A stretch of DNA of 32,000 bases from Candidatus Saccharimonadota bacterium (GCF_047555085.1 NZ_CP180230.1:990001-1022000); one strand, 5' to 3'. Counted from the stretch's first letter, positions 11,449-31,336 are shown. Numbers and translations: made by a program. Notes: generated by a model not told the origin, from the letters alone.

Positions 11449-11856
11449 TTATTCTGTTACCGTGATTCTTCCGCCGGCTGCGAAAGGCCTGTGATTGTGG
11501 TAGCTCCAGTTGCCTGTCTTTTTGAACGTGAAAGAGTATTTTTCTCCTGTCTGGCATTGATCGAAGGCTGTTATCGAAGAGTTTCCGCAGTGTTCTCCTA
11601 TAGTTGTGTTGGAGTAGTCTGTATGTGTTGGATGGGGATCAGAGGCTATCCACATGCTGATGGAGGCCTTGTTGCGCCATACAACTGTATCGCCTTTTTC
11701 GATAGTCAGGACAGTTGGCTGGAAGCCTCTCTCCGTCATGTTGACTGTATAAGTCTCTGACTCATCCAGGTCTTCCTGCTGTTGTGGTGCGAAAAGTGCG
11801 ACGAGTGAGACAGCGAAGACTACCAGTGCCAGAGTCCTGATCTGTGGCTTCTCCAT
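11449..11856 (-). CDS. secreted or anchored cupredoxin-like domain protein
   Basis: N-terminal hydrophobic helix. GFQPTVLTIEKGDTVVWRNK...DPHPTHTDY...SYHNH fits the cupredoxin-like beta-sandwich pattern with His/Cys candidates. The metal site is not verified. Confidence 0.6.
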   Translation of the reverse strand: MEKPQIRTLALVVFAVSLVALFAPQQQEDLDESETYTVNMTERGFQPTVLTIEKGDTVVWRNKASISMWIASDPHPTHTDYSNTTIGEHCGNSSITAFDQCQTGEKYSFTFKKTGNWSYHNHRPFAAGGRITVTE

Positions 11857-11902
11857 GAATTGAAGATTTGTGGATCTCTGTATAAAAAATGCTTCAAAGT
11901 AT

Positions 11903-12646
11903 TCAGGCCTCTGCAGTTATGTGATCCCAGTATACTCCGACAAGCAGAAGTGATAGGAAAGTTATCGCGGCGAAGTACGAAGATGTTGCAAAGTAGTCTC
12001 CCTCTGTGAGAAGCATTCCGAACTCGTCCATGAATATTCCTAGGCCTGTCCCGTAGAGTACTGCAGCGTATTTCTTGGAGAATCCTTCGCGGAAGAGCAG
12101 AAGCCATCCTGCGGAGATCAGTGCTGCGAATCCGAAGAAGAAATGATGGATGTGATATCCGCTCACCCATATCTCGTTAACCGGTATAAAGAATGCAGGG
12201 CCTGCTGTTTCAGGGCCTACGATGCCGGAAAGTATAACTGCTACACGTGCAACAACGAATGACAGGAAAAAAGTGGAGAGAACTATCATACGGAGCTTGG
12301 ATTTTTCCGAGTACGATGAAACTTTCTCCAGTGATCCAAGATATATATCGAAGAGAAAGTGAAGTATTGCACTTGTAGAAAGCAGGAAGAATCCGGCTAT
12401 AATACTGAAAAGCTGTTCCTCAACGACTAAAGCAGACATAACTTCCTCTGCAAGATCTCCAAGCACAAAACTGTAGAAAGCTGCCGGGAAACGTGGAAAA
12501 AGCAGTGCAGAAACAGTAGCGGAGAATCCTACTACGACTCCAAGCGTGGATAAGCTTCGCAGAAGCTTCAGATCATCTTTTTCCAGGCCCAGAAAGGCAA
12601 ATACCCTCTTCAATAAAGATTTCAGGGCCTTAAAGCTTCTATCCAT
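11903..12646 (-). CDS. polytopic membrane protein, unknown function
   Basis: 247 aa with an ATG start, about 6-7 hydrophobic helices and a conserved-looking GYHIHHFFFG segment. Confidence 0.65.
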   Translation of the reverse strand: MDRSFKALKSLLKRVFAFLGLEKDDLKLLRSLSTLGVVVGFSATVSALLFPRFPAAFYSFVLGDLAEEVMSALVVEEQLFSIIAGFFLLSTSAILHFLFDIYLGSLEKVSSYSEKSKLRMIVLSTFFLSFVVARVAVILSGIVGPETAGPAFFIPVNEIWVSGYHIHHFFFGFAALISAGWLLLFREGFSKKYAAVLYGTGLGIFMDEFGMLLTEGDYFATSSYFAAITFLSLLLVGVYWDHITAEA

Positions 12647-13413: not shown

Positions 13414-13444
13414 CTCTCAAAATTGGAAAAAGTAGAGAAAGATG

Positions 13445-13532
13445 CGCCGGGGCCGGGATTTGAACCCGGGAGGGCGGTGAAGCCCAGTAGCTTAGCAAGC
13501 TACCGCGATAAACCATACTCTGCCACCCCGAC
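13445..13532 (-). tRNA. tRNA-Ser (anticodon GCU), class II with long variable arm
   Basis: The reverse strand reads GTCGGGG TG GCAG AGTATGGTTTA TCGC G GTAGC TTGCTAA GCTAC. This is followed by a 17-nt variable arm (GGGC/GCCC stem), CCGGG TTCAAAT CCCGG, CCCCGGC and G. There is one A-C mismatch in the D stem and no encoded CCA. Confidence 0.88.
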
Positions 13533-15508: not shown

Positions 15509-16372
15509 TCACGTTTCCAGTATACCCTTCCTGGCCGCGTGGAAAAGATACTCCTGCGCGTATCCGGCATCCTCCCCGAAGTACTCCCGTACATTTTTGG
15601 AAATCTCCTCGTAATCATCGGAAAAAAGTTCAGGATACTGTTCCTCAATCAACTGGGAGGCCCACGTATCTATCGGATAGGCCTCGTAGAATCCGAGCGA
15701 AAACAAAAGTACACAGTCAGCTACTTTGTCTCCGACGCCGTAAAGATTCTTCATCTCCTCACGGGCCTCCTCGTATTCCATACCTCTTACTTCTTCCGGA
15801 TCGAAATCTGTCTCCTGTAAAATCTTCACTGTCTCAACGATGTACTTCGCCCTGTATCCGATCCCGAGATCCCTTAAGTCGTCTTCAGAGGCCTCTGCAA
15901 GTTCCTCCAACGTCGGGAATCTTCTCATCTCGATGCCATCGATCATTCTTGTCTCGCCAAATTTTTCAGCCATCTTGTTATGCATCTCCTTGATCCTTGG
16001 AATCCTCATCTGAGGAGAACAGAGATACGAGATCAGACACGGGAAAAATTCGTCCTGTATAATTCTCAGGCCCCATAGCTCTTCCCTGGCCTTCTCCAGC
16101 TTCCGATCATCTGGAAAAGTGGAGAAAATTTCCTGGAGATCTCTGTCAAGGCCTACAGCCTCTTCAACTTCCTCTCTCGGTAGTTCTGTCCTGGCGACAA
16201 GGCCTTCATCCGTATCTTCGATTATTATCGGCTTGTTTTTTCTGAAAGTATAGAAATGCGGCTCTCCGTCCTCGTAAAGAGTTCCAGCGACACGATGCCA
16301 GCAAAAGGTCTGGCCACACGTCATCGTCAATTCAAGATCAAAATCTTCATCATCAAGAACGTATCTTTCCAC
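15509..16372 (-). CDS. ogg: 8-oxoguanine DNA glycosylase / AP lyase (OGG1-type, HhH-GPD)
   Basis: An OGG_N-like TMTCGQTFCWHR block is present. The HhH-GPD block YGVGDKVADCVLLFSLGFYEAYPIDTW carries the catalytic Lys and Asp. GTG start. Confidence 0.85.
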   Translation of the reverse strand: MERYVLDDEDFDLELTMTCGQTFCWHRVAGTLYEDGEPHFYTFRKNKPIIIEDTDEGLVARTELPREEVEEAVGLDRDLQEIFSTFPDDRKLEKAREELWGLRIIQDEFFPCLISYLCSPQMRIPRIKEMHNKMAEKFGETRMIDGIEMRRFPTLEELAEASEDDLRDLGIGYRAKYIVETVKILQETDFDPEEVRGMEYEEAREEMKNLYGVGDKVADCVLLFSLGFYEAYPIDTWASQLIEEQYPELFSDDYEEISKNVREYFGEDAGYAQEYLFHAARKGILET

Positions 16373-16412: not shown

Positions 16413-17105
16413 TCAGGAAGATTTCCTTGAAGTCACGTGGAGGCCTCTCTTTCCTGTCCTGTAGATGTACTGTATCTCAGATACTGTTAGAGGCCTGTTG
16501 TACAGTCTTATTTCACTGAGTTCTCCGCTGTAGTATGCTGTGGTCTCGTTTGTCGTCGAATCATTGGACTGAGCCATTCTTCCGAACTGTAGGTTGCCGC
16601 CGGTATCATGGTTCTGGGCGTTCCAGTTCCATGTATCAACTAGTTCTCCGTCAACGAAAGCTCTGGCCGTTGAACCGGAATCGTTGAAAGTGGCTGCGAT
16701 GTGATGTAATTCTCCGTCGTTCACAGTTATCGTGCTTACTGTGTGTTCATAGGTCGAGTCGCCGTTCATAAATCGTAGATAACCATTGCCATCCCTGTTG
16801 ACCTCCGCTTCGTACACCGGCTGCCAGTCGTTGACAGGATTTTTCCTGATAAAACCTCCTCTACCGGAAGTCGAAGTTCTGATCCAGAAAGACATTGTCA
16901 GCTCTCTTCCTTCAAGAGAAAGCTCTGGAGAGTCAGACACCTCAACGAAATCGTCCGATCCATCAAAGCTGTATGCGTTCTGGCCGTGGAGGCCTGAAGC
17001 CGTTCTCGTAATACCTCCGTTCAAAGTGCCATGATTCTCATTAGATGAAAAATCCTTTGCGTCCCCGGAGCCCTCATTTAGAGGCCAGTATCCAACTAAC
17101 ACCAT
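16413..17105 (-). CDS. LamG / concanavalin-A-like lectin-fold protein without an obvious signal peptide
   Basis: LVGYWPLNEGSGDAKDFSSNENHGTLNG...YSFDGSDDFVEV...SFWI...HHIAATF...FVDGELV...SEIRLYNRPLTVSEI is the classic Laminin_G_3 pattern. Confidence 0.8.
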   Translation of the reverse strand: MVLVGYWPLNEGSGDAKDFSSNENHGTLNGGITRTASGLHGQNAYSFDGSDDFVEVSDSPELSLEGRELTMSFWIRTSTSGRGGFIRKNPVNDWQPVYEAEVNRDGNGYLRFMNGDSTYEHTVSTITVNDGELHHIAATFNDSGSTARAFVDGELVDTWNWNAQNHDTGGNLQFGRMAQSNDSTTNETTAYYSGELSEIRLYNRPLTVSEIQYIYRTGKRGLHVTSRKSS

Positions 17106-17141
17106 ATCAACGGAATCGCAGAATATTTTTCATAGAGGTTT

Positions 17142-19067
17142 TCACGTCACGTTTATGACTATACTATCGTTTTCAGGCCTGAACTTTGCGCCTTCCTTTA
17201 TAGTCACTTTTTCAGCTGTTATAGTGAATCCTCCTGTCCACAGGCCTGAAATTGCGGATTTATTGAATATGTTAAGTTGTGCAGGAGCTGATAAAGCACC
17301 TACATCAGCTTTTTGCTTCGCCTGGAAGATTTCCTGTATTGAAAAGCTCTTGTCTGAAATCTGTTTTGAACTGTTCAAAATACATTCATTTCTTGGGCCT
17401 CTCAAGTCGCATAAACTGGAGACAACGGTTGAAAATTCCCAGTAAGGTGACTGGATGCTGGAGAAGCCGTCTGTAACTTCTACATACCAGTAGTATGTTT
17501 CATTTGTTTCAAAATCAGCGTAGTTTACTTCAGGCCTTGTGTCAGATTCAACATTTGTCTTGCTTCCAAGAGAGTATGTTTCTGGCTTTTTTTCGCATAA
17601 AACTGTCTGTTCTGCGGAGTTGCTGCACTGGTAGTCGTTCCATTTACCTCCCGAGTACATCTCTGCACAGTCTTCACCGTTCTGATTGTTAGGTTCGTTG
17701 CTGCCCCAGTTCACGTAGCTTGAGGAGCCGTTCTCCCATTCAAAGTTTCCTTCTGATGCTCTGTCATTGTATCCTATCCATAGATCTCCGCCGAACTCCT
17801 GATTTATCGCATCATTTTCCTCGGCATCGTTGATAGTTACGATATGGCCTCCCTGAGCTTTGCAGTAGTCTACTCCATTTGTCCAGCTCTGAGTTGATTC
17901 GCTTTCATTATAGCAGACTTCATCTATACGCGTCCAGCCGGAAGGACAGTCTCCAAGCGCCTTGAAACTTACATTCAGCTGTTCTCCATCCGGATCCGAG
18001 ACGTTAACCGAGAAATCTACAGGCATAGAAAGATTTTCTGCCCCGTCCTGAGGACCTGGATCAAAAACGTCAGGAACGCCAATAGTTATACTTGGTTCCG
18101 GTTCCGCCCTGTCAACACTGTATCTAAGGCCTGAACTGCCGGATGAAATCCTCCACTGGCCTCCCCATCCGCCTGTATCTTCGTTCACCATCATCAGGAC
18201 AAGATTCCTGCCCTGATCCAGCGTAGCTGAGAAAGTACTGTCATCTACGGTGAGGCCTTGATCATCACACTCCTGATGCTCCAGATTCCCATTAATCCAT
18301 ACTTTTCTCGTGTCATCTGAACCTACAGAGAAATCAACAGTACGAGTATCAGGACTCCATATGTAGGCCCCTATAAATCCTTCTGAGCTGGACTGATCGC
18401 TGCCCCATACAGTATCGAAGTCAACCTGGTACTGGCTGTAACCTCCGTACACACCGGAATTAGTTGTATCAATCGCTTTCCAGAAACTTCCAGAATCCCA
18501 GTTAGAGCTTCCTAGAGTGGAGGATGCATGAGGCCTGTCTGTTGCAGGATCAAAGTTGGCATCTAGCGTACAATCTACATTTCCTCCTGCCCATTTCATC
18601 CCTATGAACTGGTCTCTCGTGTATCCTCCGGAAGTAAGAGTTCCTGAAGGAACTGTCTGGCTGAAGCTTGTCTTTGAAGATGCCTGCGGATTATCGTAGT
18701 AAACATATACGTTCTCTGTTGCACCTGCACCAATATCCTGCACATTAACTACAAGATCCGTGGAATCAGTGTTACAGCCTGATTTTATCCAGTAGTCAAG
18801 TGATGTGCTGTCATCAGTGTCAACGAACCTGAGATCGCTGCAGTCGTTCTGAAGACTACCTGAATCCACAAGAGTCGCTGTATCTATAGTCATCCTCACC
18901 GGATAGTTGGAAAGTGTTCTCCCAGAGTTCTCTGTAATCTCTATTGTTTTCCTGTCGTTCCAGCTATCATTCCACCAGGAAGCAGATAGAGGCAGAACTA
19001 GAAGTAGTAAAATCATAACCAAGAATATTCTCGGGAATTTCTGCAGTATTTTCCGGCTGTACGACAT
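17142..19067 (-). CDS. secreted multi-lectin protein: signal peptide, DUF2341, PA14-like domain, Fn3-like domain interrupted by a C-type lectin domain, conserved C-terminal module
   Basis: Residues 31-135 carry the DUF2341 pattern (WWNDSWNDRK...DLRFVD...LDYWI...VYVYYDNP). Residues about 150-320 look like PA14 (FIGAYIWSPDTRTVDFSVGSDDTRKVWINGN...LDQGRNLVLMMVNEDTGGWGGQWRIS). Residues 374-491 are the C-type lectin domain. Residues 552-641 are shared with the 20436 gene. Confidence 0.85.
   Translation of the reverse strand: MSYSRKILQKFPRIFLVMILLLLVLPLSASWWNDSWNDRKTIEITENSGRTLSNYPVRMTIDTATLVDSGSLQNDCSDLRFVDTDDSTSLDYWIKSGCNTDSTDLVVNVQDIGAGATENVYVYYDNPQASSKTSFSQTVPSGTLTSGGYTRDQFIGMKWAGGNVDCTLDANFDPATDRPHASSTLGSSNWDSGSFWKAIDTTNSGVYGGYSQYQVDFDTVWGSDQSSSEGFIGAYIWSPDTRTVDFSVGSDDTRKVWINGNLEHQECDDQGLTVDDSTFSATLDQGRNLVLMMVNEDTGGWGGQWRISSGSSGLRYSVDRAEPEPSITIGVPDVFDPGPQDGAENLSMPVDFSVNVSDPDGEQLNVSFKALGDCPSGWTRIDEVCYNESESTQSWTNGVDYCKAQGGHIVTINDAEENDAINQEFGGDLWIGYNDRASEGNFEWENGSSSYVNWGSNEPNNQNGEDCAEMYSGGKWNDYQCSNSAEQTVLCEKKPETYSLGSKTNVESDTRPEVNYADFETNETYYWYVEVTDGFSSIQSPYWEFSTVVSSLCDLRGPRNECILNSSKQISDKSFSIQEIFQAKQKADVGALSAPAQLNIFNKSAISGLWTGGFTITAEKVTIKEGAKFRPENDSIVINVT
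17145..17414 (-). other. conserved about 90-aa C-terminal module, copy 1
   Basis: LCDLRGPRNECILNSS..IS...F....IF.A...AD...N.S.ISGLW.G.....GA.FRPE...I..NV aligns without gaps to the C-terminus of the 20436 gene, at roughly 40 percent identity by eye. Confidence 0.7.
17595..17948 (-). other. canonical long-form C-type lectin domain (protein residues 374-491)
   Basis: CPSGWTRIDEVC...SWTNGVDYC...HIVTINDAEEN...WIGYND...NEPNN..GEDCAEM...KWNDYQC.....LC. Six Cys sit at the positions of the three CTLD disulfides. The WIG motif, an EPN triplet and a WND triplet are all present. Confidence 0.8.
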
Positions 19068-19068
19068 T

Positions 19069-19248
19069 TTAATCCTTCTTGCTGTATTTCTTGAATCCTG
19101 TCTTTCCTTCCTTCTCCTCTGAGGCCTTGCTTTTAGTCTTCTTGGCCTTTCTTTTGAGATAGCTCCGGCCGCATTTATGGCATTTCACACGCTTCTGGGC
19201 CTTACTTCTCTGGCGGTACCCGCAGTCAGGACACTGGTAGTACACCAT
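19069..19248 (-). CDS. small zinc-ribbon protein with lysine-rich tail (59 aa; below the ORF-track cutoff)
   Basis: My translation of the minus strand is MVYYQCPDCGYRQRSKAQKRVKCHKCGRSYLKRKAKKTKSKASEEKEGKTGFKKYSKKD. It carries a CxxC...CxxC motif. Its TAA stop is separated by 1 nt from the ATG of the multi-lectin gene. Confidence 0.55.
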   Translation of the reverse strand: MVYYQCPDCGYRQRSKAQKRVKCHKCGRSYLKRKAKKTKSKASEEKEGKTGFKKYSKKD

Positions 19249-19339
19249 GTAGAGAGATTTAATTCGGAACTGTAAAAACGTAGCGGTGAGTTACAGGAAA
19301 TCCGAAATATTTTTCCCGGATGCGGAAGAAATACCAGTT

Positions 19340-19618
19340 ATGGACCAGAAAATCAAGAAAGGAGGCCTGATAGGAGTAATATTTGCGTTAATAGCATATG
19401 TGATCGCGCTCCGTAACGGATTCAACCAGTCAACTTTCACACTTTTTCTCTACCTGTATGTAGGCCTTGGCGTAATCGCTTCCCTGGAATTTTCTGATCT
19501 CCAGGCCCGTGGATTTCTGGACAGAATAGTTATAGTGGCAGAGGATGAGGAAAAGAAGCTGAAGAAGCTTTTCAGCGACGAAGAATACAGAATCGACGGC
19601 ACTGTAGAGAAAGTCTAG
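19340..19618 (+). CDS. small two-helix membrane protein
   Basis: The ATG at 19340 (MDQKIKKGGLIGVIFALIAYVIAL...) is preferred over the GTG at 19286. An A/T box at about 19306..19315 lies 25-34 nt upstream. Its stop shares the tetranucleotide CTAG with the convergent gene. Confidence 0.5.
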   Translation: MDQKIKKGGLIGVIFALIAYVIALRNGFNQSTFTLFLYLYVGLGVIASLEFSDLQARGFLDRIVIVAEDEEKKLKKLFSDEEYRIDGTVEKV

Positions 19619-20400
19619 TGACTATCCCTATCGATGACAACACCGTCACTGTCCTCAAGAACTGCTCTATCCGATGTCTCATCCCAGTCAACACCTGTAC
19701 CGTACACATACCCTGAGTCCTCTTCCTCGGAGACATTAAGCGCGTCTTCGGCAGCAGTGTACACGAACAACTGTTCTCCTGGCTCCAGAACAATATTTTC
19801 AAACGTATAGGAATCCGGATCAGAGTTTGTCAACGTCCAGCCATCAAGATCTATCTCCCTGTTCTCATCATTGTCTATAACAGCTCTTTCATCTTCATCG
19901 GAGGCCTTTGAACGTGTTATCCTTACATCGACTTCAGGAGTCATCTCGTTTCTTACTCTGGCTCTGTAATCATCCATACTTTCCTTCATAGACTGCATCC
20001 TGTTTTCAAGAACAGTCCTGTTCGCTCCCTTGAAACGGGAGACAGATAATCCATCTTTCAGGCCTTCGACAAGAGTTCCTGCCGCCATCTCCAGAGTATA
20101 TATTCTTGAAGTATTGTTGACTTTCAGAGTCAAAGTTCCTCGCGGAGTAGAAAGTTTCTCGATCCTCTGGAACGGATTTTCTTTAACAGTATAAAGAGAG
20201 TCGCTTTCCTCTATAGAGGCCTTTGAGAAATCCTCTGCCTCAATATCCACATCGGTCTGGAGATTTGAGGTATCAGAAACCATAGGCGTTGATTCAGAGC
20301 CGAAATCAACGTTTTGAGATGCCGTAGGAAAAGCTAGAAGAGCTGTAAGGATAAAGGCAGATATGATAGCTCCTGTTCTATCCGAAGCCATCTCTAACAT
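19615..20400 (-). CDS. secreted protein with C-terminal lamin-tail domain (LTD)
   Basis: Signal-like N-terminus (AIISAFILTALLAFPTASQ). The C-terminal VIDNDENREIDLDGWTLTNSDPDSYTFENIVLEPGEQLFVYT...WDETSDRAVLEDSDGVVIDRDS fits the LTD pattern. Confidence 0.75.
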   Translation of the reverse strand: MLEMASDRTGAIISAFILTALLAFPTASQNVDFGSESTPMVSDTSNLQTDVDIEAEDFSKASIEESDSLYTVKENPFQRIEKLSTPRGTLTLKVNNTSRIYTLEMAAGTLVEGLKDGLSVSRFKGANRTVLENRMQSMKESMDDYRARVRNEMTPEVDVRITRSKASDEDERAVIDNDENREIDLDGWTLTNSDPDSYTFENIVLEPGEQLFVYTAAEDALNVSEEEDSGYVYGTGVDWDETSDRAVLEDSDGVVIDRDSH

Positions 20401-20435
20401 TAAAACAGAGTTTCCTGATTAAAAATTATTGGCCT

Positions 20436-21728
20436 CTACTCAACTACGTTGAGAGAAATCCTGCCGTCTTCAGGCCTGAAATATGCACCAGAAGTGAGAA
20501 CCAGTTCCCGGGATGAGAGATTGATGCTGCCTCTCCACAGGCCCGAGATCGTGGATCTGTTATCGACATTTATCGCTCCTGAGGCCTCTGTTGAGCTTAT
20601 ATCAGCTGATTCTCTGGCAATAAATATAGAGTTGAATGTGAAGTCTTCCCCTGATATATCTCTTGAACTGTTTATTATGCATTCGTTCACAGGGCCTCTG
20701 GCATCACATATATCCACAGAGGCCTCAGATCCTATCTCTATCTGAGGTTTGCTGGCCACATAGTTTCTTGTTCTCACCCAGTCATAGGATGTGTCCGTGG
20801 TTGTTGGGTCAGAATCCAGTGAGAAATGTCCGAGGCCTATGACAAAGTTTGAATGCTGTGAGGTGAGATCTCCTGTGCACGAGACACGGTTATCATAGTT
20901 TAGAGCTGTCTGGACTTGTGATCCTGTATCAGTTATACTGTAGATGTAGTTTTCTCCAGTAGTGGCTGTGAAAGTGCTGACTCCAGAACAGATATTGTAT
21001 GAAGTTGTATCGCCGTTCCCTGTCCATGTTGAAACTTGTCCAGATGTCTCATCCGTAATGAAAAGTACATTTGCATTGCCGTTGCTGTTGCTTCCTGACA
21101 TAGTGCCGCTGTCAGCTATCATAAGGCCTGAGTGATCTCCAGAGATGCTTGAAGTATATTTTAGCCGGGCCTCTACTACAGTTCCTGGCTGTGAGACTTC
21201 TTCAGTAGCCGAGTGAACGTTTCCTGTAGTTATTTCCAGTCTGCCGTTTGATTCTGTAAGTGCATCGCCGCTGTTGTAGTCAGTCCACTGGTCTGAAAGC
21301 GTACCGTCATTGAAACCGTCGAAAACAGGGAAAGTTGCCTTGCCGTTGCTTCCTGGAGAGGCCTCCGGATTGCCGTAGTATGCGTATATTGTTTTCTCGG
21401 CTCCTGCCTTTAGTTCAGGGAGTTCTACCCATACCGTGGTAGATTCTGTGTTGCAGCCGGATTCTATCCAGTAATCCATGGATGTATCGTTATTTCCTGC
21501 AAACCTCAAATCCTGACACGAGGCCCGCATATTACCGCTGGATATCATTTCAGAAGTATTTAACTCCAGTTTAATCTGGTGATTACTGAGATCCTGTCCT
21601 GAAGTCTCTGTAACTGTGATATTTTTCCTGTAATCCCAGCTGGAATCCCACCACGCTGCAGATACAGGAACGGAAAGCATCAGCACAGCAACCAAGGCAA
21701 AAATCGCTGAAATTTTCCTGTTATTCAT
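20436..21728 (-). CDS. secreted DUF2341 plus ConA/LamG-like lectin-fold protein with conserved C-terminal module
   Basis: The ATG at 21728 (MNNRKISAIFALVAVLMLSVPVSA) is preferred over the GTG at 21755. It has a DUF2341 block (WWDSSWDYRK...DLRFAG...MDYWIESG...IYAYYGNP). A jelly-roll region ends in the typical YDWVRTRNYV. The C-terminal module is paralogous to that of the 17142 gene. Confidence 0.8.
   Translation of the reverse strand: MNNRKISAIFALVAVLMLSVPVSAAWWDSSWDYRKNITVTETSGQDLSNHQIKLELNTSEMISSGNMRASCQDLRFAGNNDTSMDYWIESGCNTESTTVWVELPELKAGAEKTIYAYYGNPEASPGSNGKATFPVFDGFNDGTLSDQWTDYNSGDALTESNGRLEITTGNVHSATEEVSQPGTVVEARLKYTSSISGDHSGLMIADSGTMSGSNSNGNANVLFITDETSGQVSTWTGNGDTTSYNICSGVSTFTATTGENYIYSITDTGSQVQTALNYDNRVSCTGDLTSQHSNFVIGLGHFSLDSDPTTTDTSYDWVRTRNYVASKPQIEIGSEASVDICDARGPVNECIINSSRDISGEDFTFNSIFIARESADISSTEASGAINVDNRSTISGLWRGSINLSSRELVLTSGAYFRPEDGRISLNVVE
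20439..20711 (-). other. conserved about 90-aa C-terminal module, copy 2
   Basis: ICDARGPVNECIINSSRDISGEDFTFNSIFIARESADIS...NRSTISGLWRGS...SGAYFRPEDGRISLNV. See copy 1 at 17145..17414. Confidence 0.7.
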
Positions 21729-21794
21729 GGAACACACGGATATAGAAGAGATCACTACAGCTTAATGATTTTTCCCTATACCTTTGAGACTTCA

Positions 21795-22793
21795 TTAGAG
21801 ATCTTGATAGTTCTCCATAAATACCGTGAGAATCGACTTCATCACTCCGAATATCACGGGGCCTATGAACAGGCCTGGAGCACCGAGGAGCACCACCCCA
21901 CCTATAACACCGAGTATAATCAGAGCAGGATGTAGATCAGCCGAGCTCTCGACAAAAAGAGGCCTCAGGAAGTTATCACTCAGGCCTACAGCTATGAATC
22001 CGTAAAGTGCAAGCATTATACCTGAAACAGGATCTGTTAAAGCCAGATACCCTGCTGCAGGAAGCCATACCAGCATAGATCCTACTATAGGCAGGAGGCC
22101 CAGTATCATCATTATGAAAGTCCAGAACACATAGTTTGGAACACCGAAGAAAGCCAGTCCTACACCTGCTATGATTCCCTGTGCTATAGCTACAAGTATA
22201 TGGCCTTTCATAACAGCTGAAGTAGTCACTGACACTTCTCTAAGCAGACTGTTTTCAAGACTCTCCGGTAAAGGTGAAACATCTTTCACCCATCTTACAA
22301 GCCTTCTTCCATCTTTCAAAAAGTAGTAAACAAGGAAAAGCATCAGTGAAAGGCCTATCCCAACGTTTGCAACTATGTTGACCACTCTTGAGAAGCTTCC
22401 CAGTGTTGCAGAGCTGAATTCCTCTACTGCGCGGGCAAGATTGGATTCTATATCGATCTCCTGGCCTGTAAGCCTCTCAATTTCATCCTCTATAGATGTG
22501 AGATTTATTGTATCTGTAGTATTGATATTGTCAACAAGATCTGTCGCATCGTCTGCTACAGCCATTCCTCCAAAAATTATCGGCAATACCGCCAAAAGTA
22601 TAGCTGAGACTGTAAGAACTGCTGCCGAAGGCCTTGCACCTATCTTCTCCTGTAGGATGAAATGAGGCCTTCTCAGTATAAATGCCAGGATTGTTGCGCC
22701 CAGTATGTAAGTGAGAAATGGCATAAGCATGAGGCCTACAACAGTTCCAAAAATACCGATAAGGAACAGCAGGAAGCCTTTTCGCTCGTTCAT
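21795..22793 (-). CDS. AI-2E family transporter (PerM/UPF0118-type permease)
   Basis: LPIVGSMLVWLPAAGYLAL...GLSDNFLRPLFV...HPALIILGVIGGVVLLGAPGLFIGPVI matches the conserved C-terminal blocks. The ATG at 22793 is preferred because the longer ORF overlaps the upstream gene. Confidence 0.85.
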   Translation of the reverse strand: MNERKGFLLFLIGIFGTVVGLMLMPFLTYILGATILAFILRRPHFILQEKIGARPSAAVLTVSAILLAVLPIIFGGMAVADDATDLVDNINTTDTINLTSIEDEIERLTGQEIDIESNLARAVEEFSSATLGSFSRVVNIVANVGIGLSLMLFLVYYFLKDGRRLVRWVKDVSPLPESLENSLLREVSVTTSAVMKGHILVAIAQGIIAGVGLAFFGVPNYVFWTFIMMILGLLPIVGSMLVWLPAAGYLALTDPVSGIMLALYGFIAVGLSDNFLRPLFVESSADLHPALIILGVIGGVVLLGAPGLFIGPVIFGVMKSILTVFMENYQDL

Positions 22794-22815
22794 ACATGAT
22801 TTTTTGATGTCTAAG

Positions 22816-23958
22816 CTAAATAAAGACTCCGATACCTGAGAAAAACAGTATAGATGGAACAAGCAGAACTGCCATACAGACTCTTCTGTTACCTGTCTCC
22901 AGAGCAGCGTAACCGATCATAGAGGCTGTAAAAATTACAACAAGACCTGTAAATCCTGTCACGGCCGCAGAAATAGCTACCAGAATTACAAGAATTGTAG
23001 GGAAGATTTTTGACAGCGAAATATTCTCCAGCAAATCCGTGTAGAGGCCTGAAATCTTCAGGGCCAGTAAGGCAGATACAGGAACGGAAATCAAAGTCAC
23101 CAATATCACGAGATCTATATTTACCTGTGTTGAGAAAAGCTGGAGCGCCACAGAGACCCCGGAGCGTGCATTCCCAAGTATCTGTAGAGTAAAGATGGAG
23201 AAGATGATATCAGTAGTATTCACGGCTCCCATGGAAGACATGAATTTTCCTGATGAATCATTCATGAAAGGTGATACGAAAGCTGTCGATACAGCAGCGC
23301 CTATACCAGGGACCACTCCTGCAAGAAATCCTGCTGCTGTTCCGAAAATACCTCCGGAGAATGCGTTAATTTTATCGATTTCAGGTCTGTCCTGATCCGG
23401 TATCTCAAAACTTTCCTCCATAGATCGGATTATGGCAGGTACTGCGAAAAGGCCTGAAAACAGCGGTATGAAGATGAAATTCTGATTAACAGGTACTTCA
23501 AAACTGAGGACTCCAAGGACACCAGAGAAAAGTGCTATTAGAAATGCTTCAGGCCTGTCATCCGAGTCCAGGACTACGAACAAAAGGAAGAAGACCAGGA
23601 TATACTCCATAAATGACTCTATACTCGAGTAAAGGCCTTCAAGGAAGAAAAAAGAAAGCAGAGCAACAGCCAGCACAGGTACAACAGCTGAGAGAGCTCC
23701 GTACACCGTGTAGTGAAATGATTCAAGGCCTTTTCCCTGCTGTACTGCGGATTTTCCGTTTATAGTGGAAAGTGCGGACTCTGCATCAGGCGATGAGAGA
23801 AAAATCGCCGGCAGAAAATCATGGAAAGTATGGGACACAGATATAGCAGACAGGAATACGGCATAGGCACCGAGGCCTGTTCCAGAGCCAAGATAGAAAG
23901 GTACGGTAGTAAATATCACAGTGTTTGGATGTATTCCCGGGATAAGGCCTGTTGCCAC
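22816..23958 (-). CDS. TctA/DUF112-family membrane transporter subunit (start uncertain)
   Basis: Many TM helices with the repeated G-x-x-PG-x-G pattern (GLIPGIHPN, GFLAGVVPGIGAAVS). The first canonical start is GTG 23958. The frame stays open and TM-like upstream, back to an in-frame TAA at about 24019..24021. Confidence 0.7.
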   Translation of the reverse strand: MATGLIPGIHPNTVIFTTVPFYLGSGTGLGAYAVFLSAISVSHTFHDFLPAIFLSSPDAESALSTINGKSAVQQGKGLESFHYTVYGALSAVVPVLAVALLSFFFLEGLYSSIESFMEYILVFFLLFVVLDSDDRPEAFLIALFSGVLGVLSFEVPVNQNFIFIPLFSGLFAVPAIIRSMEESFEIPDQDRPEIDKINAFSGGIFGTAAGFLAGVVPGIGAAVSTAFVSPFMNDSSGKFMSSMGAVNTTDIIFSIFTLQILGNARSGVSVALQLFSTQVNIDLVILVTLISVPVSALLALKISGLYTDLLENISLSKIFPTILVILVAISAAVTGFTGLVVIFTASMIGYAALETGNRRVCMAVLLVPSILFFSGIGVFI

Positions 23959-24433: not shown

Positions 24434-26071
24434 CTACTTCTCCATATGTTCAAGGATCTTGGAGTATGCAGGCCTTGTGATAGTTATTCCTACAAGGATT
24501 CCAAGTATTGTTGTAGTTGCGAACTCTGTAATCTGCTGTAGAGATGAAAGAGGGAATGTTGTAGCGAATGCTCCTACTGTAAGCGCCATTGCTCCTACGG
24601 CAATATAGTGCCTTCCAGCGCTGCTTTTGTACTGGCTGTATCCTATCAAGCCTAGTCCTGCTGCTCCCACCATCATTGCAGAGAATCTTGGTGAGAGTAT
24701 TGGCACCATCGCTCCGATTGTGGAGGCTGCAGAAGTGAATATAACGAAGAAAGCTGTCTTCATCCTCTGCTTCCAGTCCTTGACTGTTTTCCTGTCGGAT
24801 TCATCTGTTATAATTATCTGGTCGTCTACTCCCGTACCTACCGCAGCGATTATTCCTGCTATCGCTGAGAGGCTGAGTGTTGCAAAGCTTGTGAACCAAA
24901 GGCCTAGAAGTATGAATACCTCTGAAGCACCCGTCAGGACTATAGGTGCGACAAGCTTTGGATTGCGGTATCTTACAAAGATGAGCACTCCTACAGCGAG
25001 CAGTGCTCCGATTATCGATAGAATTGAAGCTGCCATGAACTGGCCTCCGAGCGAGCTTCCGAGGCTTGATGTGCTGACGATTTCAACAGGCTCTGGAAGC
25101 CTTCCGGACTGAAGTAAGGCCTCGATCCTGTTCATTTCCTCTCTGGCAGCTCCTCCAGAATCTCTTGAGATGGTTATACTTGGATTGGTTATTGTGTTTC
25201 TCTGGAATTCTTGAGATACTGTGAATCCTGTGATGGCTTCGCTGTCGATGAATATCGTCAGTTCTGCCGGGCGACCGTTCTTCATCTGAAGGGAACCGCC
25301 ACCGCTTGCTGAAGGAGACACATCATAATTATTGGCTACATCCATCAGTCTCTGGGCGGACGTCTGTGAAACAGTTAGAGGTATCTGCCCCTGATATGTA
25401 TTCTGTGCTACCTGGCGGACAGCAGACTGTGAAGTCCTTACATTGAGTATATCTGTGTTATCGTAGATCTGGAACTCCATTCTTGTGTATGAACCGTTCT
25501 GACCGGCGTAGTATACTCTTGTGTCCCCGAGCTCCTGATGATCTCCCTGTTCCAGAGTCTTATTGTAGTATTCCAGGCCTGAATCTGTGTAACGACCTAT
25601 ACTTACTGTTGAATCATTGTTCTTGACGAAACGGTATGTATCAGATAAAGTGAAGTTGCCCGAGTCTGAGAAAAGATATGGCATCCGGGCCTCAAACGCT
25701 CCTTCTCGGGAGATAAGCTGCTGCAAACGAGTGTTGTTCTGTTCAGAAGTTGTAACGCTGATTCGATGTCCTGTACCGATGTCTATAGTATTAATAGTGG
25801 TTTCTCCGAATCCTATCTCATTTACACGTGTTCTGAGGATTGATGCGATGTTCTCAACCAGTTCCTCCGATTGATTCTCGGACTGAACCTTTAGAAGGAG
25901 CTGTGAACCTCCAGAAAAGTCTATACCCATGTTATCTTCAAGGCCTGTGAACTCCAGATTGTAGTTGCCGTTGTTCGATGTGTATGTTGGCTGGAGGCCT
26001 GCTACGGAGAAAGCAAGGACTACAAGCAACAGTATTACACGCCATTCCTTGAGCATATTTTTTACGGCCAT
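24434..26071 (-). CDS. secD: protein-export membrane protein SecD
   Basis: 545 aa with an N-terminal TM helix, a large extracytoplasmic domain and a C-terminal 5-TM bundle carrying GTGVDDQIIITDE. It overlaps the secF stop by 10 nt. Confidence 0.85.
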   Translation of the reverse strand: MAVKNMLKEWRVILLLVVLAFSVAGLQPTYTSNNGNYNLEFTGLEDNMGIDFSGGSQLLLKVQSENQSEELVENIASILRTRVNEIGFGETTINTIDIGTGHRISVTTSEQNNTRLQQLISREGAFEARMPYLFSDSGNFTLSDTYRFVKNNDSTVSIGRYTDSGLEYYNKTLEQGDHQELGDTRVYYAGQNGSYTRMEFQIYDNTDILNVRTSQSAVRQVAQNTYQGQIPLTVSQTSAQRLMDVANNYDVSPSASGGGSLQMKNGRPAELTIFIDSEAITGFTVSQEFQRNTITNPSITISRDSGGAAREEMNRIEALLQSGRLPEPVEIVSTSSLGSSLGGQFMAASILSIIGALLAVGVLIFVRYRNPKLVAPIVLTGASEVFILLGLWFTSFATLSLSAIAGIIAAVGTGVDDQIIITDESDRKTVKDWKQRMKTAFFVIFTSAASTIGAMVPILSPRFSAMMVGAAGLGLIGYSQYKSSAGRHYIAVGAMALTVGAFATTFPLSSLQQITEFATTTILGILVGITITRPAYSKILEHMEK

Positions 26072-26994
26072 GGGATCACCTCACGAAGATCAGGTACATT
26101 GAAGTCTCCTTCAACATACTTTTTCAGTATGAATGCGTTGCCGAACCAAGTGAACGGCATATCTGCCAGAAGGCCTATCACCATGACTGATGCAACGGCT
26201 GAAAGTTCTGAAGGCCCTACAAGAGCCATGGAGATAAAGTACAGAAGTGTGAAAGCTGCTATACCTCCCGAACTCATAGTTACTCCCGTCTTGACTGAGC
26301 TCCAGATCCTGTCACGCAGAGAACCTCTCTTCTGCTTCAGAACTCTTGAAGACAGAACAATATCGGTATCAACAGAGTATCCGATAAGCATCAGTAACGC
26401 CGATAGAGAACCGAGCGTCATCGGAATATCAAGAAGCGACATAGCCGCTATAGTAAATATTATATCTGCAGACGCCGCAAGGACGACAGCAAATGCTGGC
26501 ACAAGATCTCTGAACGAGGTGAAAATCACCAGGCTCATGATTGTAAACGCTAGTATAAAAGCCCATACGGCCTGTATGAAAAATGTTTCAGCTACTGCAC
26601 TGGTGGCAAAGTAGAACTGCTGGACATCGACATTAAAGTTCTTTATCGAGTTGTTCTCAAGGAAAGATTCGGCTACAGACTCGTTTTCCAGCTGTGGAGG
26701 CGGCACTGTAACTCTAAGTATAGGCCCGCTTTCAGTTTCCTCTCTCAAAGCACTTGTACCAGGCCTTCCCTGAGAGGCAAAAATCTCTTCTATCTGTACC
26801 GTATCGAACTCTTCCTGTATATTATATGTTACTTCTGTTCCTCCCGAAAAGACTACTCCTCTGTCGACAACGTTACCGTTAGCTGCGTACTGGCCTCCTA
26901 TAACAGCTAGAGACAGCACGAAAAGTAGAACCGGGATGATAAACCAGCGATCATAATCCGCATAGATCCTGTTAAAATATTCCTCTACGTTCAC
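26062..26994 (-). CDS. secF: protein-export membrane protein SecF
   Basis: 310 aa with an N-terminal TM helix, a periplasmic-type domain and a 5-TM bundle carrying GYSVDTDIVLSSRVLKQKRGS. GTG start. Confidence 0.85.
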   Translation of the reverse strand: MNVEEYFNRIYADYDRWFIIPVLLFVLSLAVIGGQYAANGNVVDRGVVFSGGTEVTYNIQEEFDTVQIEEIFASQGRPGTSALREETESGPILRVTVPPPQLENESVAESFLENNSIKNFNVDVQQFYFATSAVAETFFIQAVWAFILAFTIMSLVIFTSFRDLVPAFAVVLAASADIIFTIAAMSLLDIPMTLGSLSALLMLIGYSVDTDIVLSSRVLKQKRGSLRDRIWSSVKTGVTMSSGGIAAFTLLYFISMALVGPSELSAVASVMVIGLLADMPFTWFGNAFILKKYVEGDFNVPDLREVIPWP

Positions 26995-27119: not shown

Positions 27120-29783
27120 ATGAGTCTGGAGCGATACAAGGAAAAAGTAAAGGATAATTTTTCAAGAGAAGGCCTCAAAAATAACTGGGCGTTTCTAGCC
27201 GTTGCAGCAGTTTTCGGAGTCGCTCTATGGCTCAGATATCTTCCTGAACAGGGAATGCAGAATCTTCAGGCCCTGGATCCATACATGATCTTCAGGATGT
27301 CCCAGCATCTGGCATACGAAGGAGCTATGCCTGTAGCAGACTTTATGAGGTACTTCCCTTACAGCGCTCCAACTTACCTACTTAATATAGGAGATATCGT
27401 CTTCCCTGCTATACTTTACTGGATGGGGCCTTCGATGATTTTCGAGAACTATCTTGAGTGGGCGCAGTTCTATCCTGCTCTTATGGGTGCTCTATCTACT
27501 GTTGTAATGTACTTTTTCGGTAAAGAAGTTGCAAACAAGCGTGTAGGAATTTTCTCAGCCTTTTTCCTAGCTGTAATCCCTGGCGTGATGCGTCGTTCAT
27601 CCGCAGGATTCTTCGAGAAAGAGCCTATCGGGACGTTCTTCATGATGCTGACACTGCTCTTCTTCGCAAGAGCATGGAAGCGTGAAAGCTACATTTCGGG
27701 AATACTTTCAGGCCTCTCACTTGCATTCTTCACAATCTCCTGGGGAGGATCCCGGATGCTATGGCTGCTTCTTCCTCTCGTAGTCGGCTCCCTGATATTC
27801 ATAGACGAGGAAGTCCACGAACTGATCGTTGCTTACACGCCGACAGTGCTTGTAGGAGGCGGAGTGGCAGCAGCACTCAACTACAATCGTTACTGGATCA
27901 CAGGAACACTTTTCGTCGCAAACATCGGCCTCTTGGGCCTGCTGTGGAGCAGATACCTGATCGAGGAACTTGATCTCGTCAAGGAAAAGAATCTGAAGTA
28001 CTACGTTCCAACAGTCTCAATAACAGGCCTCATCTTTGTACTGCTTTCACCACTCTACTCCAACTTCATCGCCTCCAAACTGATGAGCATTATTAACATG
28101 GTGACTCAGACGACAGGAGGAGATGTCATCGGAGGAACAGTCGCAGAAAACACAGCTCCAGGCCTCTCAAATCTTATAACAAGCCTTGGAGCAGAGACAG
28201 CTGGCAGCATCCATCCTGTTCTCGGAACTTTGGCCAGCATAGTAGGTTCATGGCCTATGATGATGCTGGGAATAGGATTCATGGGCTCAACAGTTGCTTT
28301 CATGCTTCTAAAGAAATACGGCCTTGTAGAAAGCGAGGTAAGCGACAAGATCTACTTTGCAGGCTTTGAAACAGTTTTCCTATCCTGGATGCTTCTTGTA
28401 ACAGGCTTCTTTGAGCAACTGCTGATCTTCAGCGCTCTAGCCGCATTAACAGTTATCGGAATGTTCATAGCGTTCACAAAGTACCTCGACGACGACTACA
28501 CGTTCAAGCTTGTGACAATGGTGACCGGAACAGGCCTCGTGCTTGAGATACTGATGCTTTTCTCCGGTGCACAGATAGCGTACACCGTCATCCCTGCAAC
28601 AGCTCTCGTGCTGGCAGGCCTTGTAGCACTTTACTACAACGACAGGCTTGGAAGCAGAGAAATCGAGATGGAGTGGATAATCGTGCTCCCTCTTGCATGG
28701 GTGATCACAAATCTGCTGGGATCAGTTGCGAAAAGCAGGATAATCTTCCTTTCAACCTTTGCAGTGGCATTCGCAGCAGGATACGGCCTCGCCAAGATTA
28801 TCGGAGGCCTCGAAAACATGGATCTCAACGAAGTGTTCGAGTTCGAGAACACTGAAAGACTTAAGTACGCTGCAATAGCGATCATACTAATTTTAACTGT
28901 TGCAGTGAACTTTTCAGCAGGATTTATCAACGTTCAGAGTGTTAGCGGATCCCCTAACCAGGCCTGGGATCAGAGCCTGAACTACATGGATGAACAGACT
29001 CCTGACGGATCAGTAGTCATGTCCTGGTGGGATTACGGATACCATTTCCAGACAATCGGGAGAACTGCCTCTGTAGCGGACGGAGGAAACGCTGGATACT
29101 ACTCGAACGAAGTTAGAGCAACGAACATGCCTCTGGCTGATTTCCTGACTTCCGATGATCCTATGAATACTCCAGGCCTTGACAGTTTCCTGGAGCAACA
29201 TTCCGTGGATTACATACTGCTCGATAATACAATGATCGGGAAGTACAGTGCAGTGAGCACAATTTCAAACGGAGCAGCCAATCTCCCTAACGAGTCCACA
29301 GGAGATCCTAGCTCAATGCTTACACTGTCCACTTCAGCAAACATACAGGACTCCATAAGCCAGAGCGGAAACACGACAACAGTAACATTCACAAGCTCTA
29401 GAGGCCTGCAGATCTATGCACCAGTACAGATCTCCAACAACAGCATCTCTCTATCAGATGAACAGGCCCCGACACTACAACAAACGACAGGCAGAGGAAC
29501 AGTCAGACAGCCTATTGACTGCATACTTACAGAAAACGGAAAGATAGAGTTCGATGTCGACACCCAGATCCCTTACTGTCTCGCAGAGGATCCTTACTTC
29601 AATCTGGAAAGAGGATTCCAGACACGACTACAGGCCCAGTCAGTGCTTGTACCGAAGGAGATCTCGGACTCCCAGCTTGTAGAGCTTTACATCCAGGATG
29701 GAGAACAGCTTGACTACGTTGAAAAAGTAGAAGAGGCCTCTAACGACTACGTCAAGATGTGGAAAGTGACTAAGACAGAATGA
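27120..29783 (+). CDS. aglB: dolichyl-phosphooligosaccharide-protein glycosyltransferase (archaeal oligosaccharyltransferase, STT3 family)
   Basis: The WWDYG motif is encoded at 29026..29040 (VVMSWWDYGYHF). The first external loop has an LDPYMIFR motif. A 13-TM-type N-terminal half is followed by a soluble C-terminal domain. Confidence 0.9.
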   Translation: MSLERYKEKVKDNFSREGLKNNWAFLAVAAVFGVALWLRYLPEQGMQNLQALDPYMIFRMSQHLAYEGAMPVADFMRYFPYSAPTYLLNIGDIVFPAILYWMGPSMIFENYLEWAQFYPALMGALSTVVMYFFGKEVANKRVGIFSAFFLAVIPGVMRRSSAGFFEKEPIGTFFMMLTLLFFARAWKRESYISGILSGLSLAFFTISWGGSRMLWLLLPLVVGSLIFIDEEVHELIVAYTPTVLVGGGVAAALNYNRYWITGTLFVANIGLLGLLWSRYLIEELDLVKEKNLKYYVPTVSITGLIFVLLSPLYSNFIASKLMSIINMVTQTTGGDVIGGTVAENTAPGLSNLITSLGAETAGSIHPVLGTLASIVGSWPMMMLGIGFMGSTVAFMLLKKYGLVESEVSDKIYFAGFETVFLSWMLLVTGFFEQLLIFSALAALTVIGMFIAFTKYLDDDYTFKLVTMVTGTGLVLEILMLFSGAQIAYTVIPATALVLAGLVALYYNDRLGSREIEMEWIIVLPLAWVITNLLGSVAKSRIIFLSTFAVAFAAGYGLAKIIGGLENMDLNEVFEFENTERLKYAAIAIILILTVAVNFSAGFINVQSVSGSPNQAWDQSLNYMDEQTPDGSVVMSWWDYGYHFQTIGRTASVADGGNAGYYSNEVRATNMPLADFLTSDDPMNTPGLDSFLEQHSVDYILLDNTMIGKYSAVSTISNGAANLPNESTGDPSSMLTLSTSANIQDSISQSGNTTTVTFTSSRGLQIYAPVQISNNSISLSDEQAPTLQQTTGRGTVRQPIDCILTENGKIEFDVDTQIPYCLAEDPYFNLERGFQTRLQAQSVLVPKEISDSQLVELYIQDGEQLDYVEKVEEASNDYVKMWKVTKTE

Positions 29784-30904: not shown

Positions 30905-30933
30905 AGTTCAAATAGAAGTTTACGGGAAAATGT

Positions 30934-31311
30934 TTATTCCTCGTCTTCTTCACGCTCTTCCTTGTAAGGATCTTCTACGCGCGTGATATCTCCCGGTACG
31001 TAAGGGAACGAGATCTCAAGAATTTTGGCAACTTCGCTATCGATATTCTGGATCTGATGCCTTTCATTCGAACGGATAACCATGGCATTGCCCTTTTCAA
31101 TATCCTTCATATCTTCTTCATGACGGATAACGACGTTACCTTCCTCCAGATAAATTATATCGGCCTGACGCTCGTGATAGGCGTAGGAAGTCATCTCATC
31201 TGCATCTATAACAAGTCTTCTGATTCCTAGCATACCTGTCTGGTCGCCGACATCGACCTGAGTCATGAGAACCTGTTCCTCAAATCCCCAGGGCTTGTCA
31301 ATACGTCCCAT
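30934..31311 (-). CDS. cupin-domain protein (sugar-nucleotide or mannose-6-phosphate isomerase-like small barrel)
   Basis: KPWGFEE...RRLVIDADEMTSYAYHERQADIIYLEEGNVVI...ERHQIQN fits the cupin motifs. The substrate is not inferable. Confidence 0.65.
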   Translation of the reverse strand: MGRIDKPWGFEEQVLMTQVDVGDQTGMLGIRRLVIDADEMTSYAYHERQADIIYLEEGNVVIRHEEDMKDIEKGNAMVIRSNERHQIQNIDSEVAKILEISFPYVPGDITRVEDPYKEEREEDEE

Positions 31312-31336
31312 ACCTACCTTATGGAATTAAAACTTC

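Follow-up and report, generated by a model that had tools for sequence, protein, structure and literature searches.

A variable island of putative glycan-binding surface protein genes in Candidatus Nanosalina

The stretch of DNA analysed here (hereafter the window) comprises 32,000 nt of NZ_CP180230.1 (positions 990001-1022000) and carries, between window positions 16413 and 21728, a cluster of six genes coding for lectin-like and other proteins. Three of the products (641, 430 and 230 aa) match NCBI proteins of Candidatus (Ca.) Nanosalina sp. VS9-1, encoded on a 1.046-Mb contig, with 100% identity. The cluster is probably a lineage-specific, gene-content-variable island of genes for cell-surface glycan-binding adhesins set in a conserved housekeeping backbone, and not an obligate five-gene machine. 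An earlier note on this DNA had proposed a multi-lectin apparatus for recognising a partner or host surface; the six open reading frames (ORFs) are indeed found at the coordinates and on the strands it gave, with spacers of 36, 1 and 35 nt. The two DUF2341 proteins would share a chassis consisting of a Sec-type leader and DUF2341 beta-sandwich, an interchangeable lectin head and a beta-rich C-terminal module of about 90 residues with two Cys, the head being either a ConA-like domain or a PA14-like region together with a C-type lectin-like domain (CTLD) nested in an FN3-like domain. They would be exported via Sec and folded with disulfides outside the cell, may be kept cell-associated or oligomerised by their conserved ends, and may bind sugars on a partner surface, for instance those of a haloarchaeal S-layer glycoprotein, or exopolysaccharide. 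The leaderless LamG gene next to them belongs to a separate hypervariable LamG family.

The 641-aa protein consists of a leader, DUF2341, the PA14-like region, an FN3-like domain with the inserted CTLD, and the C-terminal module. The CTLD matches PF00059 with 73.2 bits (cut-off 22.6, E 3.5e-20, aa 392-493) and possesses the six cysteines of the long form (Cys374, 385, 402, 467, 481 and 491), WIGYND at position 430 and a complete Ca2+/sugar site made up of E458-P-N460, E465 and W476-N-D478. A phmmer search aligned it to human MRC2/Endo180 with E 1e-27, and a second matched MRC2 CTLD stretch (chain residues 353-479) has EPN, EDC and WND in register. The AlphaFold2 (AF2) model gave Foldseek matches to the carbohydrate-recognition domains (CRDs) of ASGR, CD23 and DC-SIGN, with a predicted local distance difference test (pLDDT) score below 50 for the sugar-binding loop (aa 434-462), and the motifs are kept in orthologues, among them P0002 and P0004 (overall identities given as 68-83% and as 68-71%). 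The EPN motif in CTLDs corresponds to Ca2+-dependent binding of mannose-, GlcNAc-, glucose- or fucose-type sugars. Since the EPN/E/WND site is kept, the domain should bind sugars of these types in a Ca2+-dependent manner, and because all the canonical residues of the site are retained, it seems most reasonable to suggest glycan recognition at the cell surface as the function of the lectin-fold proteins. On glycan recognition or attachment the earlier note thus appears to agree with the lectin folds, the leaders, the intact CTLD site and the published predictions considered below.

The domain resembles animal CRDs (the mannose receptor family including Endo180, DC-SIGN, CD23 and mannose-binding protein) in the six-Cys long form, WIGxxD, the EPN/E/WND site and the AF2 fold, but differs from them in being archaeal, in its putative position inside an FN3-like domain and in being flanked by DUF2341, the PA14-like region and the C-terminal module. 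C-type lectin superfamily folds thought to interact with hosts are also known from the variable proteins of diversity-generating retroelements (DGRs) in DPANN archaea; those, however, are FGE-subclass C-type lectins (CLec) diversified by a reverse transcriptase, whereas the window CTLD is of the canonical Ca2+ type and 63-86% conserved. No Pfam reverse transcriptase match was obtained in the window, where scans for this and other families, including those of pili, covered ORFs of at least 100 aa, and DGR diversification of the CTLD was rejected on this ground and on that of its conservation in orthologues. The searchable literature yielded no account of a nanohaloarchaeal protein with a canonical CTLD or a PA14-like domain; where it mentions C-type lectins in DPANN, DGR variable proteins are meant.

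The LamG, lamin-tail (LTD), CTLD and both DUF2341 domains named in the earlier note were recovered by Pfam, but PA14 was not: neither PF07691 nor GLEYA matched the 641-aa protein at E≤1. When a profile of aa ~141-325 was compared with PDB, the sole match, not significant with E 0.15, was the PA14 lectin domain of the ice-binding Marinomonas adhesin MpIBP (5j6y and others), in an alignment placing SDD of the query over ADD of the DD motif; the region was modelled by AF2 with pLDDT 35-70. It behaves as a mobile module, being also present inside the LamG protein P0006. The CTLD appears to be nested in a loop of an FN3-like domain spanning aa 326-551 (17415-18092), with DPDGEQLNVSF before the CTLD and ETYYWYVEVTDG...SPYWEFST after it. 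In NCBI the protein is annotated with 624 aa, starting at Met18, and so loses the positively charged n-region of the leader (19018-19067); the signal encoded by the longer ORF used here is closer to the usual Sec type. P0004, an orthologue, is also annotated without a leader, and tblastn extends it upstream (L001 9917).

The 430-aa protein is 43% identical to the 641-aa protein over aa 9-140 of the latter, that is the leader and DUF2341, and 44% identical over the last 89 residues, with unrelated middles. Judged from these alignments, the two are evidently paralogues with shared N- and C-terminal ends and different lectin heads. The same two ends surround a fibrinogen/COLFI-like head in the metagenomic protein P0007, whose gene stands alone between eIF, MCM and TBP genes. 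The middle domain of the 430-aa protein has no Pfam match, but its claimed ConA-like fold is borne out by the AF2 model (pLDDT 80), which gave 131 Foldseek PDB matches at E≤1e-3, nearly all of the 50 listed being ConA-like (GH16, CBM66, DUF1080, legume lectins and ERGIC-53). Orthologues of the protein show 54-68% identity, and the DUF2341+ConA unit aligns with bacterial proteins at ~30% identity over ~320-350 residues.

The best structural neighbours of the ConA-like domain are GH16 glycanases, CBM66 and GH43-associated modules, which would fit a nutritional role, in which the proteins, as binders similar to carbohydrate-binding modules or as cryptic glycanases, would keep glycogen, starch or the exopolysaccharide of algae or bacteria close to the cell and recognise no host. 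Nanohaloarchaea in culture are members of consortia that degrade polysaccharides, and they use alpha-glucans (PMC7443923, PMC10266531), and the strong conservation of the heads in orthologues is as expected for a chemically constant ligand. The GH16 catalytic E-x-D-x(x)-E motif is, however, absent from the ConA-like domain and the rest of the 430-aa protein, by which a cryptic GH16 enzyme was ruled out; Pfam scans of the window ORFs gave no glycoside hydrolase or sugar transporter gene within the cluster; and heads of the CTLD, fibrinogen-like and pentaxin-like types typically serve to recognise glycoconjugates, not to degrade polymers. We consider a nutritional role unlikely.

Of the five products encoded on the same strand, three begin with a hydrophobic leader, namely both DUF2341 proteins and the LTD protein; the description of the products as secreted may hold for these, but the LamG and Zn-ribbon proteins have no such leader. 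Cysteines are paired in the DUF2341 domain, the CTLD and the C-terminal module of the DUF2341 proteins, from which an extracellular, oxidising location may be inferred.

The C-terminal module is defined by the pattern CDxRGPxNEC...N.S..SGLWxG...GAxFRPE..RI over ~90 residues with two invariant Cys and was modelled by AF2 as all-beta with pLDDT 85-96. Its sequence has no match in Pfam, NCBIfam or PDB. An exhaustive HMMER search of 1.84 billion representatives resulted in 132 module proteins, of which 120 cluster representatives reach E≤1e-10, and in these proteins the module is nearly always located at the extreme C-terminus; it directly follows the signal peptide in P0098, P0122, P0144, P0147 and P0149. 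Among the 104 module proteins scanned for other domains, the heads include Laminin_G_3 (22), DUF2341 (16), the ALK/LTK Gly-rich domain (12), Fibrinogen_C (6) and pentaxin (4), besides beta-propellers, sialidase-N lectin and FN3 domains, with Lectin_C being found only once, in the 641-aa protein itself. Module proteins have a median isoelectric point (pI) of 4.4, and 78 of the 94 members starting with Met possess an N-terminal hydrophobic leader. Repeated weak matches in giant proteins were judged spurious, P0153 being a bacterial CBM_X2/SLH protein. Where contexts are readable, the module genes lie singly among housekeeping genes on archaeal contigs resembling small nanohaloarchaeal genomes. 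The module was not found in the DUF2341 loci of two other nanohaloarchaeal metagenome-assembled genomes (MAGs), Aenigmatarchaeota, Undinarchaeota, bacteria of the candidate phyla radiation (CPR), Chloroflexus and Phycisphaerales. It thus has the appearance of a lineage-restricted handle on many binding heads.

From there one could go further and suggest a combinatorial surface-recognition kit, in which the module, often together with DUF2341, would act as a universal handle mounting interchangeable heads (CTLD, PA14-like, ConA-like, LamG, fibrinogen-like, pentaxin-like or beta-propeller) on a common envelope structure, with the leaderless LamG proteins as exchangeable plug-in tips; these would arrive at the surface unconventionally, for instance by Tat hitch-hiking or docked to pilin-like partners. 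We regard this extension as decidedly speculative and give it little credence; if it were true, a cassette logic like that of phage receptor-binding proteins would operate in a cellular symbiont.

The 230-aa LamG protein matches Laminin_G_3 with 72.9 bits (cut-off 27.6, E 4e-20) and carries a basic tail (GKRGLHVTSRKSS); it contains no Cys and no N-terminal hydrophobic segment, and its ORF is already the longest possible. It belongs to a family of leaderless proteins of 213-243 aa which start with M[VT]L[VI]GYWPLNE and end with G[KR]RG..V[TS]S.K[ST]S. The mean pairwise identity in this family is 66% over residues 1-56, 17% over residues 57-190 (the hypervariable core) and 60% over residues 191-230, the conservation of the ends being in part the general Laminin_G_3 signature. 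There are three paralogues in VS9-1 and one copy in Ca. Nanohalobium constans; members and their neighbours were located at 16413-17105 of the window, at 7892-8527, 11846-12499 and 13462-15561 of L001, at 5516-10666 of L030 and at 218-2333 of L031. In Ca. Nanohalobium constans the single LamG gene is the last in a run of six, which begins with a pilin-like gene with a class III signal (KGQ|SAIEYL) and a gene with a Tat signal (SRRKFLK), followed by a gene for a 156-aa protein and two leaderless double-LamG genes. A pair consisting of a ~470-aa double LamG and a ~225-aa LamG protein recurs in L001 and L031. Stop-codon read-through fusing the CTLD protein to LamG was rejected: the two genes are in frame in the window (36 nt) and in L001 (0 nt), but the gap in L003 is 34 nt.

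The island was compared with five related loci (L001/L002, L003, L004 and L006/L028) whose proteins are 52-92% identical to those of the window; a metagenome scan with the LTD protein gave two loci, one of which was already in the set. The LTD, opposite-strand membrane protein and Zn-ribbon genes are present in every locus covering them. The window, L004 and L006/L028 have the DUF2341/ConA gene, which L001 lacks; the window, L001 and L003 have the DUF2341/CTLD gene, which is missing from L006, where LamG directly follows the Zn-ribbon gene. Only L001 and L006/L028 have a 211-aa LamG gene between AI-2E and the next gene, and L001 has two extra LamG genes after OGG. The LamG in the position after the CTLD gene comes in two very different forms, with 69% vs 35% identity, the OGG flank showing 88% vs 77% in the same comparisons. 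The flanking genes (AglB, SecDF, NAC, TctA, AI-2E, OGG, lumazine synthase, MazG and TrmB) are collinear throughout. As two of its genes are paralogous and the arrangement recurs in relatives, the cluster goes beyond chance in this sense. Since the housekeeping flanks are equally collinear, synteny alone is no argument for a functional unit. In the orthologues, the PA14-like region is 85-88% conserved, the ConA-like domain 62-79%, the CTLD 63-86% and the C-terminal module 45-51%; diversity would come from gain, loss and swap of whole genes and heads, not from fast evolution of the heads.

A multi-lectin apparatus was the central proposal of the earlier note. On such a reading the five or six products would form one host-recognising surface complex, for example with the DUF2341 proteins as scaffolds, the LTD protein as a membrane tether and the leaderless LamG as an exchangeable tip docked to the scaffold. 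The reading can draw on the spacing of 1-36 nt in two same-strand runs and on the core of LTD, membrane protein and Zn-ribbon genes having a lectin gene on at least one side in every relative covering the locus. In addition, a gene for a leaderless LamG protein comes after that for the CTLD protein, at gaps of 0-36 nt, in the window as well as in L001 and L003, and the conserved LamG termini could form a docking face. Despite that, the components vary independently (L006 lacks the CTLD gene and L001 the DUF2341/ConA gene), module-bearing proteins also occur alone among housekeeping genes, and the flanks are as syntenic as the cluster. The neighbourhood recurs in close relatives, but in other genomes of nanohaloarchaea, DPANN or CPR nothing comparable was found around DUF2341 genes, near which there were no LTD, Zn-ribbon or membrane protein homologues. 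The idea of an apparatus is therefore not sustained and we hold it to be quite unlikely, in favour of the gene-content-variable island.

The invariant core of this island is formed by the LTD, membrane and Zn-ribbon proteins, which are probably not lectins. The LTD protein matches PF00932 with 45.0 bits (cut-off 34.3, E 1.5e-11) at its C-terminus (aa 171-258) and begins with a leader or anchor (…LTALLAFPTASQN…; hydrophobic aa 9-29) followed by an acidic linker; its orthologues are 52-55% identical in every relative covering the locus. The membrane protein has no family match in the Pfam scan. Its conserved part starts from ~19340 (92 aa) and consists of two hydrophobic helices and a charged C-terminal tail, and the orthologues show 61-67% identity in the same position. 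The 59-aa Zn-ribbon protein (pI 10) has the expected CxxC...CxxC pattern but gave only sub-threshold family matches (DUF7129, S27e-like); it is probably cytoplasmic and nucleic-acid binding. It is 75% conserved in the same position in L001, L002 and L006, with its first 16 residues present at the contig end of L004. A TATA-like element (TTTTTACA) is located ~24-31 nt upstream of its start codon (19249-19300), which suggests a near-leaderless transcript from the Zn-ribbon gene that could extend over the 641-aa and LamG genes.

DUF2341 has been linked to archaeal type IV pilus loci (arCOG03508), where the proteins were proposed to be tip adhesins and compared with PilY1 (Makarova 2016, PMC4858521), and in M. 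maripaludis a transformation-defect screen repeatedly recovered transposon insertions in a DUF2341 gene (MMJJ_08210) that belongs to the epd pilus locus (PMC10133366). Haloarchaeal Tat-fimbriae, moreover, carry the LamG tip adhesin TafC (PMC11821415). The DUF2341 proteins of the window might thus be PilY1-like adhesins carried at the tip of a filament, fimbrial or similar to a type IV pilus, whose genes would lie in another part of the genome. This would also agree with the pilin-like gene preceding the leaderless LamG run in Ca. Nanohalobium constans and with the metagenomic protein P0010, in which a class III (type IV pilin) signal peptide and pilin-like N-domain are fused to DUF2341 and a ConA-like domain, and which can be read as a 'Rosetta-stone' link between the DUF2341+ConA adhesin unit and pilus-like filaments. 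No pilin, prepilin peptidase, assembly ATPase or platform protein was found, however, among the scanned ORFs of the window, and the DUF2341 proteins differ from those of pilus loci in having Sec-type, not class III, leaders and an additional, apparently lineage-restricted module. The window LamG protein resembles TafC as a LamG-containing proposed adhesin of a halophilic archaeon with a weak domain-level match (E 2e-7), but reaches only 30.4 bits against the cut-off of 410 of the TafC model NF052521, over the LamG part only, and has no twin-arginine motif, FimA-like N-domain or nearby taf genes. A filament-tip function is considered improbable.

A genome scan with a single DUF2341 peptide pattern returned 18 loci, two of which are nanohaloarchaeal; the loci come mostly from episymbiont lineages (DPANN, CPR/Patescibacteria), together with Chloroflexus and Gammaproteobacteria. 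Tandem arrays were seen at L010 5974-11325, L013 and L014, with five copies in a Phycisphaerales MAG and three copies each in Aenigmatarchaeota MAGs. Large DUF2341 proteins have been noted in Patescibacteria.

DUF2341 is also shared with viral proteins, with which the DUF2341+ConA unit aligns over ~330-370 columns. In BFVD, the unit of the 430-aa protein has matches among the proteins of CroV and of viruses of Sulfolobales (lowest E 1e-14); one match is annotated as a structural protein, and the best one is unannotated. The window LamG protein matches the LamG parts of virion structural PHROGs and a protein of HVTV-1 at 27% identity, and in L026 a module-bearing LamG gene lies near an integrase and many small helix-turn-helix genes. 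On this reading the lectin genes would be virus-derived: their products would serve an integrated virus or mobile element in receptor binding or as structural components, or else act as decoys against viruses of that sort. We find this hardly credible: no integrase, capsid, terminase, att-like repeat or adjacent tRNA was found at the locus, its GC content is similar to that of the remainder of the window, IMG/VR scans gave no relatives, and the same housekeeping flanks are present in all the relatives. The only direct repeats at the locus are the two copies of the module-coding DNA (70-78% identity), and a prophage or genomic island was rejected, there being no integrase, flanking repeats or adjacent tRNA. 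Likewise, PADLOC gave only a weak match of the LTD protein (E 1.5e-4) to a candidate 'SNc+LTD' model, and anti-phage defence was not retained as a candidate.

Nanohaloarchaea have been described previously as encoding organism-specific secreted LamG/ConA-like lectin proteins, some of them in operons, which were predicted to be a host-attachment system (La Cono 2020, PMC7443923; Reva 2023, PMC10266531). The locus belongs with this class, being nanohaloarchaeal, partly clustered, with LamG/ConA-like folds and a gene content that differs between relatives. The lectins of the cultured nanohaloarchaea (Ca. Nanohalobium constans, Ca. Nanohalococcus occultus and Ca. Nanohalovita) are from the same phylum, have the same folds and are likewise part-clustered, strain-variable and predicted to function in host attachment, and the first of these organisms encodes a leaderless homologue of the window LamG gene. 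The locus differs in adding a canonical CTLD, a PA14-like region and the chassis of DUF2341 and C-terminal module, which are absent from both accounts, and in the proteins being small (230-641 aa) with several leaderless LamG members, whereas the published lectins are giant. In view of the two publications, the statement of the earlier note that such a combination had not been described as a system was overstated. The newness rests on an intact canonical CTLD in an archaeal symbiont, on an undescribed module of ~120 clusters and on a leaderless LamG family with a hypervariable core.

Several points weigh against the island of surface adhesins proposed here. The LamG and Zn-ribbon products lack export signals. 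The PA14 assignment is weakly suggested, by an alignment (E=0.15) that has no statistical support. Anchoring, oligomerisation or sorting by the C-terminal module would be pure conjecture, and the module has no membrane or sortase-type signal. Finally, with the heads being the most conserved and the module the least, the DUF2341 proteins do not look like arms-race receptors on a conserved anchor.

Table 1 Coordinates of the cluster genes, their domains and the nearest flanking genes in the window
Feature	Position (nt)	Strand	Residues	Basis or remark
DUF2341 protein, 430 aa	20436-21728	-		ORF listing
Leader of 430-aa protein		-	1-25	
DUF2341 of 430-aa protein	21324-21653	-	26-135	Pfam, 80.8 bits vs 23.4, E 1e-22
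Putative ConA-like jelly roll of 430-aa protein	20724-21323	-	136-335	Foldseek
C-terminal module of 430-aa protein	20439-20723	-	336-430	
LTD protein, 261 aa	19615-20400	-		35 nt after 430-aa gene
Small membrane protein	19286-19618	+		3' end overlaps LTD gene 3' end by 4 nt
CxxC...CxxC Zn-ribbon protein, 59 aa	19069-19248	-		ORF listing
CTLD protein, 641 aa	17142-19067	-		1 nt after Zn-ribbon gene
DUF2341 of 641-aa protein	18648-18977	-	31-140	PF10102, 44.8 bits vs cut-off 23.4, E 1.7e-11; Cys76/Cys98
PA14-like middle region of 641-aa protein	18093-18647	-	141-325	Weak profile match; includes VGSDDTRKVWINGN
CTLD of 641-aa protein	17586-17954	-	372-494	Pfam Lectin_C
C-terminal module of 641-aa protein	17145-17414	-	552-641	44% identical to paralogue module
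LamG protein, 230 aa	16413-17105	-		36 nt after 641-aa gene
OGG DNA glycosylase	15509-16372			Immediate flank on LamG side
AI-2E-family transporter and TctA-like membrane protein	21795-23958			Immediate flank on 430-aa gene side
SecD/SecF	24434-26994			Beyond AI-2E and TctA-like genes
AglB/STT3 oligosaccharyltransferase	27120-29783			Followed by GT4-family glycosyltransferase (to 30904)

The cluster had also been described as flanked by the envelope biogenesis genes SecDF and AglB and by a giant surface protein gene. Both SecDF and AglB are real, but the AI-2E and TctA-like genes lie between them and the cluster, and the giant protein is separated from it by 6.5 kb and ~12 unrelated genes, so this flanking is only loosely true and incidental. 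The protein in question (5302-9936) has 1544 aa, a pI of 4.05, 47 N-glycosylation sequons, no Cys and an N-terminal hydrophobic segment; it has no Pfam match and could be an S-layer or giant surface protein. The adjoining gene (3817-5298) codes for a CARDB protein of 493 aa that has a leader as well as a membrane anchor at the C-terminus. The region 27120-31912 contains probable glycan-biosynthesis genes coding for AglB/STT3, GT4, a cupin and an NAD-dependent sugar epimerase/dehydratase, the last ending at the window edge. The sole tRNA gene of the window, tRNA-Ser (GCT), is located at 13444-13532, not next to the cluster, and a LigT-like 2',5'-RNA-ligase/phosphoesterase at 1571-2173 matched the anti-CBASS family Acb1 weakly (E 1e-6, only just above the cut-off).

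Candidate adhesins for host recognition by DPANN episymbionts have so far been bioinformatic predictions, and the locus offers small, tractable proteins (641 and 430 aa) with which this question may be approached. If these proteins should prove unimportant for attachment, the locus would be another variable patch of surface-protein genes. The module and the leaderless LamG family, for their part, could serve as markers for listing the recognition proteins that nanohaloarchaea encode, in genomes as well as metagenomes.

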